A stretch of DNA of 64,000 nucleotides from Octopus vulgaris (taxonomy: Eukaryota). Location: NCBI GenBank assembly GCA_951406725.2, contig OX597814.1, forward strand, positions 221,836,001 through 221,900,000, read 5' to 3'. The notes under the pieces were generated by a model, which made no database searches, was not told the DNA's origin, and saw nothing but the letters and a program-made list of their open reading frames with translations. Position 1 is the stretch's first letter. Each line of letters begins with the position of its first letter. A program made the position numbers and the translations under genes. Shown here one piece after another: positions 1,190-29,887 of this stretch.

Positions 1190-1632
1190 CGATATAATTT
1201 ATTGTACATGTAGAGACTACATGTAAATTCAATAATAAATGTGATTTGGATAATGTAGTTTATAAATGTATGGTAACTTTAATTGATGATAATAATACGA
1301 ATGATTATTACTTAAACGCTATCTACATAGGGTCGACTTCGAATAAAATTAAATTAAGGGTGGCTCAACACATGTATTCTTTTAGGAATAGAAATCTAAT
1401 TAATTCTAAAAGCCTCAGTAAATATATATGGGAACTTAAATCTAAATGTATTAAATATAAATTAACTTGGGAGATAATTTGTAAGGTAAAATCTTATCGT
1501 ATTGGTAGTAATTCTTGTTTATTGTGTACTAATAAATTTAAGGAAATATTATTTAATAATAAATATGTGTTGATTAATTCCGTAGATGAGCGTAAAATTA
1601 AATGCAAACATAAATTAAATTATTTAGTTTAG
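1190..1632 (+). pseudogene. GIY-YIG endonuclease domain of a Penelope-like retroelement (C-terminal EN type)
   Basis: ORF 1246-1632 has VVYK...IYIGST..K.R..QH..SF, SKYIWELK, CLLC and C.H motifs; upstream CTCR Cys motif is interrupted by stops; followed by ~1.6 kb of very AT-rich sequence. Confidence 0.85.
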
Positions 1633-10230: not shown

Positions 10231-10329
10231 CTTTTAGGTCCTGTTCTTGACACATTTTCTTTTGTTTTTACCCCTCTGCAAAATAATTTTATTTAATTCA
10301 TTTTGCAGGAAGGACTACTTCAGCCAGAT

Positions 10330-10395
10330 CGTGTTCTGCCCTTACCTTCGAAACACGCATTGAGTCGAAACAGGGGCAGCTGAAGAAGGGGAGTA
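10330..10395 (+). ncRNA. Candidate non-circularly permuted hammerhead ribozyme
   Basis: CGTGT-T-CTGCCCT / TACCTTC-GAA-ACACG / 15-nt linker / GGGGCAG-CTGAAGA-AGGGGAGTA. Stem III 5 bp, stem I 7 bp, stem II with G-U pairs. Confidence 0.6.
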
Positions 10396-14737: not shown

Positions 14738-14898
14738 ATATAAATGACAAACATTAATAAATGTATTTAGAGGAAGGTAACTGATGCAATAATACTACAT
14801 GGAAAGTATTTATTATACACTATGATCTAATGTCGTTCAGATACCAGACTAATACAGGCGTTCCCTGTTTCTTCTTGACACTTTTCTTTATGCATAGT

Positions 14899-15732
14899 GT
14901 AGTAATTCGCATTCGTCTTGGTAGAGTAGTAATTCACATTCGTCTTGGTAGAGTAGTAATTCGCATTCGTCTTGGTAGAGTAGTAATTCGCATTCGTCTT
15001 GGTAGAGTAGTAATTTGCATTCGTCTTGGTAGAGTAGTAATTCGCATTCGTCTTGGTAGAGTAGTAATTCGCATTCGTCTTGGTAGAGTAGTAATTCGCA
15101 TTCGTCTTGGTAGAGTAGTAATTCGCATTCGTCTTGGTAGAGTAGTAATTCGAGTTCGTCTTGGTAGAGTAGTAATTCGCATTCGTCTTGGTAGAGTAGT
15201 AATTTGCATTCGTCTTGGTAGAGTAGTAATTCGCGTTCGTCTTGGTAGAATAGTAATTTTCATTCGTCTTGGTAGAGTAGTAATTCGCATTCGTCTTGGT
15301 AGAGTAGTAATTTGCATTCATCTTGGTAGAATAGTAATTTACATTCGTCTTGGTAGAGTAGTAATTCGCATTCGTCTTGGTAGAGTAGTAATTCGCATTC
15401 ATCTTGGTAGAGTAGTAATTTGCATTCGTCTTGGTAGAGTAGTAATTTGCATTCGTCTTGGTAGAGTAGTAATTTGCATTTGTCTTGGTAGAGTAGTAAT
15501 TCGCATTCGTCTTGGTAGAGTAGTAATTTGCATTCATCTTGGTAGAGTAGTAATTCGCATTCGTCTTGGTAGAGTAGTAATTTGCATTCATCTTGGTAGA
15601 GTAGTAATTTGCATTCATCTTGGTAGAGTAGTAATTCGCATTCGTCTTGGTAGAGTAGTAATTTGCATTCGTCTTGGTAGAGTAGTAATTTGCATTCATC
15701 TTGGTAGAGTAGTAATTTGCATTCATCTTGGT
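14899..15732. repeat. 27-bp minisatellite, about 31 units
   Basis: Unit gtagtaattcgcattcgtcttggtaga; translates as (TKTNANYYS)n on minus and (VVIRIRLGR)n on plus. Confidence 0.97.
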
Positions 15733-16441
15733 GGCTGTGTCAGCAAAATCCAACAAGATTATGCTGTTATAATCCAGAAAAGAAATAAACCAGATATGAA
15801 AGTATCGCTGAATTCCTTGATTCGAAAATCCTTATTGGTTTCTTCTTGGAAAATGTCCACTCACTGCATGCGATTTGTTGTCTTACAGAGGATACAGAAA
15901 ACTTGAGTTTCTTCTTGAGTTTTAATATTTGATAAAAAATAAATAAAACCCACTGTATCGCTGCCAAACCTATATATTACTAGTACAACAGTTCAAAAGC
16001 TGTTTCATTATTCCACGAGTTGAAGAAATAGGTAATAACATTGAAGATAACTTCTTTCTACAAAGTTTCTTGAGAATATTGAGATCTGTGACAGCACTGA
16101 TACTGACAACTTTTCAAGTAATTTGATACCAATTTGTGTCACTTCTATCACCTTTACTGAACAATCGTTGACAATTTCCTGAATTTTTAATAGAGGCGAA
16201 AAATTCTATTTATTATTTGACGTGTTTAATGACAGAGTGTTGTAAGCGCCACTCCGGTCATTTTCGAGGTTACTATATCGTTTTCTTCATCTCGACGTCT
16301 AGAAGCAGAAAAAGTTGGGAGGAAGAACTGGTGAGGCTTGCAATAAAATCGAAAACCCAGCTAAAAAAAATTGTACCCTGACACTATTAACACAACACTC
16401 GGTCACCCGAACTCGGACCAGAGAGTTTAATAACACACCAT
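15733..16441 (-). mobile_element. Degraded Gypsy-like leader and gag region
   Basis: Follows an LTR and a TGGTG PBS-like start; frameshifted fragments FIASL, KIQEI...GDRS, DLNILKKL resemble Gypsy gag. Confidence 0.45.
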
Positions 16442-18564: not shown

Positions 18565-18633
<69 letters not shown>

Positions 18634-18794
18634 AATTAAGGACTGAACACGAAAAGTGGACAGTCAACATGCTAGATATAGACGCCAAATCGTCATTCAC
18701 CACAAAAGATTATGTTCTCAGATCAAACTCAACATGCACGCGATATTTCGGTATCGTGTTTGCATCTAGTCCAGCAAATTACATTTATAACGGA

Positions 18795-18859
18795 CCATGC
18801 TGATGATGGCTGCAGTTTTCCTTGCGGAAAATAACAGCTGAAACTAAGTTAGTACATGG
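18795..18859 (+). ncRNA. Type I hammerhead ribozyme, copy 1
   Basis: CCATG-CTGATGA-t-GGCTG..TTTTCC-ttgc-GGAAAA..CAGCT-GAA-ACTAAGTTAGT-A-CATGG; predicted cleavage after GUA at 18854. Confidence 0.85.
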
Positions 18860-19307
18860 GTAATTATTTTATTTCGTATATTTTTCACTTGTTTATTGCT
18901 ATGGTTTTGTGTTGAGTTTGATCTGAGAACATAATCTTTTGTGGTGAATGACGATTTGGCGTCTATATCTAGCATGTTGACTGTCCACTTTTCGTGTTCA
19001 GTCCTTAATTGGTATATATATATATAAATATTTTAATCTTCGGATTCTTTTTTAATATGCTAGACCACTGGTCTTAATTGATAAATATCAATTTCTACCC
19101 TTAATTAATTTTATATAAATAAATATGTTCTCTAACCGATAAATTAACTGCTGCTAATTATTAGCTGCAGGCTAGTTTTCTCGGGTTTCAACGCGCCAAA
19201 GTAAAGGCATTTGAAAGATATATTCAAATGTAATAGGCTGAACTCCATGCACGCGATATTTCGGTATCGTGTTTGCATCTAGTCCAGCAAATTACATTTA
19301 TAACGGA

Positions 19308-19372
19308 CCATGCTGATGATGGCTGCAGTTTTCCTTGCGGAAAATAACAGCTGAAACTAAGTTAGTACATGG
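19308..19372 (+). ncRNA. Type I hammerhead ribozyme, copy 2
   Basis: Identical to 18795-18859; predicted cleavage after 19367. Confidence 0.85.
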
Positions 19373-19614
19373 GTAATTATTTTATTTCGTATATTTTTCA
19401 CTTGTTTATTGCTATGGTTTTGTGTTGAGTTTGATCTGAGAACATAATCTTTTGTGGTGAATGACGATTTGGCGTCTATATCTAGCATGTTGACTGTCCA
19501 CTTTTCGTGTTCAGTCCTTAATTGGTATATATATATAAATATTTTAATCTTCGGATTCTTTTTTAATATGCTAGACCACTGGTCTTAATTGATAAATATC
19601 AATTTCTACCCTTA

Positions 19615-19662
<48 letters not shown>

Positions 19663-19664
19663 CA

Positions 19665-19930
19665 GGGACAATTCACAAAAACGACAAAAGACGAAGCTAG
19701 GTGATGTAGACAACAAACAGATGTATTAGTTTAACGCTCGGGAAGTGAAAAAGTCTTCAACGTTTCGAGCCTACGCTCTTTCACAGGAAAGAACACAGAA
19801 AGAAACAAGGAGGGAAAATAAAGAATGTTTAGTGGTTAGCGATCCATCATAGCGAATGCCGGACAGAGGGGTTACACAGAAGAGCTAGGAAGAAGGGGAG
19901 ATAATAAAGTAGTGGTGATCCCAAAACGAA
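19665..19930 (-). mobile_element. Penelope-like pLTR fragment with a degenerate minimal hammerhead (19754-19792)
   Basis: Minus: tctttc-CTGTGAAA-GAGC-gtag-GCTC-GAAA-CG-TT-gaaga, then a T-rich tail ending at (TA)n. Confidence 0.55.
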
Positions 19931-21067: not shown

Positions 21068-21128
<61 letters not shown>

Positions 21129-21199
21129 AAAAACTACAAACTGGGACAAAGAACGCAAAACATTTAGAAGACGATACAAAAGACACGGACGGGACATTC

Positions 21200-21268
21200 G
21201 AAGCCTTCAATCTTCAGTCAAGAACCGGATCATGCTCGCAATTTCGGCTGATTAATCTTGAGATTGCT

Positions 21269-21270
<2 letters not shown>
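21200..21270 (-). ncRNA. Candidate non-circularly permuted hammerhead ribozyme, second example
   Basis: Minus: GCAAT-C-TCAAGA / ttaat / CAGCC-GAA-ATTGC / 14-nt linker / TCTTGA-CTGAAGA-ttgaaGGCT. Stem III 5 bp, stem I 6 bp, stem II irregular. Confidence 0.55.
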
Positions 21271-21314
<44 letters not shown>

Positions 21315-29660: not shown

Positions 29661-29887
29661 TATTTACATTATTTACATTTGGCGGGTATTTGACGTCATC
29701 TTCTTTGTTGTTAACACAACGTTTCGGCTGATATACCCTCCAGCTTTCATCAGGTGTCTTAGGGAAATTTCGAACCTGGGTTTCCCCAAGACACCTGATG
29801 AAAGGTGGAGGGTATATCAACCGAAACGTTGTGTTAACAACAAACACGATGAAGACAAATATCCGTGAAATATAAATAATGTACATA
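29661..29887. mobile_element. Palindromic Penelope-derived element with divergent minimal hammerheads (29713-29758 minus; 29790-29835 plus)
   Basis: Arms 29661-29767 and 29781-29887; each has gacac-CTGATGA...GAAA-CG-TT-gtgtt. Confidence 0.8.

Follow-up and report, generated by a model that had tools for sequence, protein, structure and literature searches.

The hammerhead ribozyme can be divided into three blocks, S, G and C, and RNAs in which these blocks follow each other as type SGC or type CSG have been found to cleave (PMC10085705). The six permutations of that scheme presuppose that A9 is joined directly to G10.1; as far as the parts of the paper considered here go, no insertion of more than 1–2 nt after CUGANGA is reported for the SGC types, and two CSG sequences are given. 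In the pseudoknot-containing hammerhead (PMC11300833), A9, G10.1-C11.1 and G12 are likewise described as continuous, and what is called 'helix IV' forms the pseudoknot loop's stem. Penelope-like elements (PLEs) and retrozymes carry hammerheads of type I, whose folds are nested and whose dimers form through stem III (PMC4209133; 10.64898/2026.07.22.740005). Naiads, a type of PLE, have been reported to lack canonical hammerheads, although in some of them there are words of the core to which no descriptor applies, GAAA lying 35–50 nt away on either side; the sections of the report used here annotate only 'HHR_core' and 'HHR_half_core' words and propose no fold (PMC8557442). Two octopus elements, Naiad_Obim and Naiad_Ovul, are listed there as (TA)n-targeting.

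Here we analyze a putative permuted hammerhead near position 21200 of a 64,000 nt stretch of the Octopus vulgaris genome (contig OX597814.1; hereafter, the window). The feature is real, and its sequence points to a wiring that lies beyond the six published permutations and appears to be spread through Naiads; cleavage is predicted.

Results

The window is repeat-rich, with a GC content of about 35% and remnants of reverse transcriptases and transposases. An order-free hammerhead descriptor yielded four matches, two in SGC order (at 21200 and at 10330-10386) and two of type I (at 18795 and 19308). To assess the chance level, the window was dinucleotide-shuffled 150 times in blocks of 200 nt. 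With a loose descriptor, all shuffles taken together contained 6 matches in SGC order and 25 across all six orders, to be compared with the 2 SGC and 2 type I matches of the real window; with each of three stricter descriptors, there was no SGC match in the 150 shuffles versus two in the real sequence. The original prediction of a second S-G-C-order hammerhead family at 21200 is borne out, and the doubt that it raised about the chance rate in shuffled DNA is not: the blocks lie where they had been placed, and stems I and III pair perfectly. No hammerhead model was among the 122 Rfam matches at E values up to 5, as expected because the block order is non-nested; the type I motifs of the window were missed by this search, too. 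Scans of metagenome, viral and prokaryotic genome contigs with motifs of the 21200 family found nothing, and a motif containing stem I of the 10330 element found no viral and three metagenome loci, which were taken as chance matches: two of them (L001 and L002) were rejected as hammerheads because they lack the UH and stem III, and the third (L003, 79-125, minus strand), although SGC-like with stems of 7, 7 and 3 bp, lies within a 469-aa bacterial ORF in DNA of 68% GC. Further copies of the two families were not found within the window, and the 21200 locus is a single truncated copy, not a tandem array.

Several other features of the window were observed along the way. On the plus strand, 18726-19637 is made up of a tandem pair of copies spaced by about 513 nt. 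Both contain a type I hammerhead, with its core at 18800 in one and at 19313 in the other, and an inverted partial copy accompanies them at 18613-18734, all embedded in (TA)n; the arrangement is retrozyme- or pseudo-LTR-like. In the region 29710-29840, a pair of minimal hammerhead-like motifs of type I stand back to back on opposite strands, with cores at 29795 (plus) and 29753 (minus); the latter motif shares the word UCAGCC-GAAA with the 21200 family. At 19660-19800 (minus), the start of a repeat with a T-rich tail lies next to (TA)n; it contains a CGAAAC block, and its core may be altered. At 14827-15906, repeats of 27 nt form a long array in which both strands have open frames. Finally, a GIY-YIG-like ORF remnant was found at 1198-1632 (plus), with a diverged second copy at 2218-2532; neither matched a Pfam family at E 0.01, and we take the former to resemble the C-terminal Penelope endonuclease.

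On the minus strand, positions 21267-21211 of the 21200 copy carry the hammerhead blocks in the order S-G-C (Table 1). Stem III (5 bp) and stem I (6 bp) consist of Watson-Crick pairs only, and CUGANGA, GAAA and UH are all present. A linker of 5 nt leads from the 3' strand of stem I to CAGCC-GAAA-UUGC (21250-21238), and 14 nt separate UUGC from UCUUGA-CUGAAGA (21223-21211). The linkers had been thought to match those at 10330, which is roughly but not exactly the case (5 versus 2–3 nt and 14 versus 15–16 nt). As noted before, a T-rich tail (51% T) lies between two (TA)n runs; insertion into (TA)n is shared with Naiads and is not specific to them. For a stem II with G10.1-C11.1, this copy has no upstream partner, and a downstream one requires a 5-nt bulge; all other hammerhead features that can be tested from sequence are present. 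The copy is 5'-truncated and, as had been suspected, probably dead, most likely because the upstream strands of stem II and of the interaction helix are missing. A 7-bp pairing of its 5' junction with 21203-21197 was set aside, since it shares bases with stem III and all but about four of its letters belong to the family sequence.

Table 1. Features of the two elements in the window (positions refer to the window) and helix lengths in Naiad 3' ends, given in bp in the order closing helix/side hairpin/stem II/interaction helix/stem III/stem I.
Feature	Position	Strand	Pairing or basis
21200 copy: (TA)n flank, 5' end	21273..21308	.	sequence
21200 copy: 5' truncation junction	21268..21272	-	departure from family sequence; 5' strands of stem II and interaction helix absent
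21200 copy: stem III 3' strand GCAAU, ending in U16.1	21263..21267	-	5/5 pairs with 21242-21238
21200 copy: C17, predicted cleavage 3' of AUC	21262	-	analogy with hammerhead core
21200 copy: stem I 3' strand UCAAGA	21256..21261	-	6/6 pairs with 21223-21218
21200 copy: stem II 3' strand CAGCC, ending in C11.1	21246..21250	-	partner GGCUG upstream in other copies, not here
21200 copy: G12-A13-A14-A15.1 and stem III 5' strand	21238..21245	-	block reading, pairing
21200 copy: stem I-stem II interaction helix, 3' strand	21224..21231	-	partner lost in this copy
21200 copy: stem I 5' strand UCUUGA	21218..21223	-	pairing with 21261-21256
21200 copy: core CUGAAGA, C3-A9	21211..21217	-	family variants at 21213 (N7) only
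21200 copy: strand after A9, likely 3' side of closing helix	21204..21210	-	inferred from 10330 and Naiad ends; family-variable
21200 copy: T-rich 3' tail to 3' end of element	21126..21203	-	loose ends of other copies at 21149, TA-rich flank
21200 copy: (TA)n flank, 3' end	21097..21124	.	sequence
10330 copy: full split wiring	10271..10391	+	pair lists
10330 copy: closing helix	10271-75/10387-91	+	5 bp; starts on base next to A9, abuts hairpin
10330 copy: side hairpin	10276-10308	+	9 bp; ends on base preceding stem II strand
10330 copy: stem II	10309-13/10345-49	+	5 bp; partner GAAGG at 10309-10313
10330 copy: interaction helix	10315-21/10367-73	+	5/7 pairs, 2 mismatches
10330 copy: stem III	10330-34/10353-57	+	pair lists
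10330 copy: predicted cleavage site GUU	10335	+	pair lists
10330 copy: stem I	10336-42/10373-79	+	pair lists
10330 copy: core	10380-86	+	pair lists
Naiad_Bfor			10/7/6/15/7/2
Naiad_Chem-3			8/8/4/8/5/5
Naiad_Amil			7/6/6/9/13/6
Naiad_Movir-2			5/9/6/7/6/4
Naiad_Plae			5/8/6/8/6/6
Naiad_EuTe			4/8/6/5/10/5
Naiad_Obim			3 (+2 wobbles past mismatch)/8/6/5/5/6

The 21200 element is a high-copy repeat. In its length of 147 nt it was found in sequencing runs of four organisms from 12 studies, and the numbers of matching contigs in four runs (X1, X2, X5 and X6) were 4761, 3181, 2031 and 1054, which are not copy numbers. No RNA run was among those listed with the element, which has no bearing on its expression. 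Relative to the family, the copy in the window has two deviating positions and one inserted base, none of them within the stems. Across the four organisms, variants of at least 3% were observed at none of 37 core and stem positions, versus 9 of the 20 positions in that stretch that are unconstrained (Fisher p = 2e-5) and 7 of the tail's 53 positions (p = 0.04); these p-values overstate the independence of the positions because variants are inherited from few master copies. The 3' strand of stem II (21246-21250) also has no listed family variant at this threshold. Other copies of the family have TA-rich loose ends at 21149, 21254 and 21256.

At 21268, where the copy in the window departs from the family, 45, 62, 43 and 30 contigs (X1, X2, X5 and X6) have loose ends in which the family runs on upstream. 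The 30 letters known upstream of this position are majority calls from these ends, with an agreement of 0.71–0.87. Read on the minus strand, they contain both of the missing partners: GGCUG pairs with CAGCC from G10.1-C11.1 over 5 bp, and the letters directly after it, GCCAGAUU, form 7 of 8 pairs with 21231-21224 in front of stem I, an interaction helix of −5.2 kcal/mol. The only two variants listed for the 3' strand of this helix, at 21227 and 21231, each improve it, the former by turning A-C into A-U (10–13% of depth) and the latter by turning U-G into U-A (1–4% of depth). The variant at 21227 is weak evidence because it is also a CpG change, and the A-C mismatch is retained in about 87–90% of depth.

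These results bear on the structure of stem II. It had been proposed that stem II is formed with the GGCU that follows the core after a 5-nt gap, or else that a GG was deleted. The upstream partner pairs better (−8.3 versus −5.0 kcal/mol for the downstream option), and the C of the GGCU strand (21203) is replaced by G in 13, 5, 4 and 0% and by U in 13, 7, 6 and 7% of depth, with no compensating change. Family contigs of four organisms have no insertion after CUGAAGA, so no GG was deleted, and a six-letter deletion at this site, which would have restored a downstream stem II of 10 bp, was rejected on the same grounds.

At 10330, the whole wiring is present in a nearly intact copy of another family (Table 1), and stems I and III, together with the core, are found in both copies of the window. 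The two families had been regarded as unrelated in sequence, which has to be qualified: they are not wholly unrelated because the word GCCAGAU, lost in the 21200 copy, is found upstream of the cleavage block in both. When the 100 nt upstream of 10330 were shuffled 20000 times, with thresholds chosen after the locus had been seen, 1045 shuffles had a partner for stem II, 94 also had the hairpin, and 2 had all three elements. A G-rich strand follows A9 also at 10330, and both stem II partners can pair there, the downstream alternative with −3.5 and the upstream one with −5.7 kcal/mol. The nested minimum-energy folds of the two copies lack stems II and III and bury the core in part; at 10330, nested folding gives a firm hairpin and a firm stem I, and the closing helix with about 0.6.

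To compare the two families with Naiads, we used File S5 of PMC8557442, which contains 54 consensus sequences; 53 of them were parsed by eye over their last 420–600 letters, and the counts that follow refer to these ends. The split wiring was recognized in 10 of the 53, which come from five phyla and form seven unrelated sequence sets: Bfor (ctenophore), Chem-3, Amil, Anas, Aacu and Movir-2 (cnidarians), Plae (acanthocephalan), EuTe (crustacean), and Obim and Ovul (octopus). Stem II reads GACACC/GGUGUC in Octopus, GGCUCC/GGAGCC in Acropora, GGCCCC/GGGGCC in Pomphorhynchus, GACGCC/GGCGUC in Eulimnadia, GGGGAG/UUCCCC in Morbakka, GGCC/GGCC in Clytia and GGCCCA/UGGGCC in Beroe. Every helix differs in sequence between the seven sets, and G10.1-C11.1 and the core are constant. 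In none of the sets is the base after A9 a G or a downstream stem II present, and each has an upstream partner of 4–6 bp; the interaction helix has 5–15 bp. The Beroe end as a whole and the Pomphorhynchus end in its upstream part were first examined after the wiring had been fixed, and the closing helix and the side hairpin are present in both. [quoted passage not shown]

The remaining Naiad ends are diverse. In six nematode Naiads (Nbra-1 to -3, Hcon, Hpol and Asuum), the hammerhead is of type CSG; block C is intact there, and an interaction helix is present. The spider Naiads Ptep and Smim loosely follow the order S, stem II hairpin, G, C, possibly a second way of separating A9 from stem II. 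Seven of the 53 ends (Mgal, Bpla, Mphi, Scon, Mmer, Movir-1 and Chem-4) contain near the 3' end what we take, by eye and against a twister consensus, to be a twister-like motif, apparently in a P5 layout. A third conserved motif, a candidate ribozyme, was observed in 11 Naiads (Chem-1, Chem-2, CGi, Sglo, Olur, Tgra, Pmar, Skow-1, Skow-2, Pfla-1 and Pfla-2) at the place where others carry a ribozyme. No motif was recognizable in 17 of the 53 ends, several of which are incomplete.

The 3' ends of the window families and of the Naiads have the same wiring; as sequence homology, the relation is weak. Of the 11 letters after the 5' strand of stem II, 9 are identical in the 21200 family and Naiad_Obim (p of about 1e-4 to 6e-4), and stem I of the 10330 element is common to Naiad_Obim and Naiad_Ovul. 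Three motifs of the 21200 family had no match in the 54 Naiad consensus sequences, in which line breaks may hide some. Naiad ORFs combine an N-terminal GIY-YIG domain, a CxC linker and a C-terminal reverse transcriptase, and the elements occur with pseudo-LTRs and as partial tandem or inverted copies. No ORF adjoins either copy in the window, and 30 upstream letters are known for the 21200 family.

Discussion

The 21200 copy is probably the truncated tail of a repeat whose full-length form has a split hammerhead core, and this repeat is likely a Naiad-type PLE or a non-coding derivative of one. That the 21200 and 10330 families belong to the Naiads is only inferred because neither copy has a link to an ORF. 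From 5' to 3', the wiring would start with a closing strand, the side hairpin, the 5' strand of stem II (from G10.1), an interaction strand and block S, and would continue with block G, the second interaction strand, the 5' strand of stem I, CUGANGA, the second closing strand and a U-rich tail. Types SGC and CSG have this cyclic order, too; here the chain would be opened between A9 and G10.1, and the side hairpin and closing helix would keep G10.1 beside A9 and stand in for the lost bond. A standard hammerhead core would form, with its cleavage site behind the UH triplet and at about 135 nt from the 3' end; for the 21200 family, the analogy predicts cleavage after AUC at 21262. Folding and cleavage by hammerhead chemistry are inferred. 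The cut would set the ends of the element RNA, as proposed for other PLE hammerheads, and, if the parallel with the elements of PMC4209133 holds, would free unit-length RNA from tandem pseudo-LTR transcripts.

The S-G-C order itself has already been published as type SGC, and the split wiring goes beyond it (PMC10085705). As far as that paper was considered, types SGC and CSG share with the present wiring the cyclic S-G-C order, a short linker between stems I and II, a full core, and an extra helix that connects the free sides of these two stems. In contrast to them, block C is split here, with the 5' strand of stem II upstream of block S, and the closing helix and side hairpin separate A9 from G10.1. 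A stem II 5' strand right after CUGANGA, as in type SGC, is absent from the 21200 family and ambiguous at 10330; the split wiring is not type SGC as defined. With Naiads, according to PMC8557442 and the ends taken from it, the 21200 element shares the (TA)n target, a T-rich 3' tail, 5' truncation and, in ten of them, the wiring. The type I and minimal hammerheads of PLEs and retrozymes (PMC4209133; 10.64898/2026.07.22.740005) are similar in their position at the 3' end of a PLE-type repeat, in possible assembly from two copies and in tolerating an unpaired base after A9; unlike in their dimers, stem III lies within one copy here, and stems I and II would be exchanged. Tandem units with a type I hammerhead each, as in non-LTR retrozymes, are not found at the 21200 element. 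The pseudoknot-containing hammerhead resembles the split wiring in having its core in a pseudoknotted frame with an extra helix, and differs from it in the continuity mentioned above (PMC11300833). In the mostly open-access literature, our searches turned up neither a hammerhead with an opening between A9 and G10.1 nor permuted hammerheads in Naiads or cephalopods, and supplements may hold related forms; the consulted parts of PMC13725137, PMC10162972, PMC11300833, PMC3088659, PMC8370743 and two 2026 preprints describe neither such an opening nor permuted hammerheads in Naiads.

The core could be built within one RNA copy or between two, and we lean slightly towards two. One copy would then contribute blocks S and G and the other one the 5' strand of stem II and block C, and the tandem pseudo-LTRs of PLEs would supply both. 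Each copy would be nested, and the loop of one, comprising UH, the 3' strands of stems I and II and GAA, would dock onto the junction of the other. Alternatively, as a variant of the same general explanation, a single copy would form a pseudoknot in which the interaction helix folds back along stems II and III, which we regard as a serious but rather doubtful possibility. Helices II and III are described as stacking oppositely from the core (PMC4209133), and the interaction helix links the distal ends of stems I and II with that of stem III. According to a rough estimate of reach (2.8 Å per pair and 6.5 Å per linker step, our own values), the one-molecule fold is allowed in four of nine families, including the 21200 family (48 versus 36 Å), and single SGC constructs were reported to cleave during transcription (PMC10085705). 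In the other five families, the interaction helix meets stem III without a linker and falls short unless stem III frays, a geometric puzzle that was likewise noted for some SGC ribozymes (PMC10085705), and two-copy assembly is known for PLE hammerheads (PMC4209133). Our fuller proposal is tentative, and we would not be surprised if it failed: Naiads may carry non-circular hammerheads, of type CSG in nematodes and with the core-opened wiring in at least five other phyla, that cleave only when two copies dock. Their activity would then be tied to the tandem pseudo-LTR transcript, and docking would also explain why the SGC ribozymes published so far are slow and pose a geometric puzzle.

The same fold might also exist without cutting, an ability lost or never possessed, and serve as a hammerhead-shaped 3' signal for the element's reverse transcriptase or its endonuclease. 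PLE hammerheads cleave poorly in vitro (PMC4209133), many Naiads carry different 3' motifs, and we found no precedent in the literature for activity without the A9-G10.1 bond. Nevertheless, this is unlikely, given that CUGANGA, GAAA, UH and G10.1-C11.1 are kept in ten Naiad ends and in both copies of the window, and that only N7 varies in the core of the 21200 family. Moreover, the same place is occupied in other Naiads by a CSG hammerhead (6 of 53) or by the presumed twister-like motif (7 of 53), and ribozyme-type motifs at one position suggest that cleavage is the selected function.

Considerably less probable still is an ordinary type SGC hammerhead, in which stem II would be a GGCU/AGCC helix, interrupted by a bulge of 5 nt, between CAGCC and the letters that come after CUGAAGA, and the upstream pairings would be incidental. 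The 4-bp GGCU/AGCC pairing does exist in the 21200 copy, G21205 and G21204 are invariant in the family, and the 10330 element has its G-rich strand after A9. The length of the insertion exceeds what is reported for SGC types (PMC10085705), 21203 varies uncompensated, and the seven Naiad sets have only the upstream partner. A chance match within repetitive DNA, finally, is hardly credible. Very large collections do contain good-looking SGC matches that are due to chance, as L003 in its bacterial ORF illustrates; for the window, the 150-shuffle descriptor test has already refuted this reading, and the upstream test at 10330, the letters shared with Naiad_Obim and the Naiad series oppose it as well.

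The split core thus remains the preferred explanation. If true, it would add to the six-way hammerhead scheme a form that this scheme excludes by assumption, and it would overturn the statement that Naiads lack hammerheads. Type CSG would be represented by six nematode Naiads, compared with the two sequences given in the parts of PMC10085705 considered here. Standard descriptors miss the split wiring, and therefore the hammerhead counts of invertebrate genomes may be too low. Non-circular permutations would move from rare environmental RNAs to high-copy repeats of animals.
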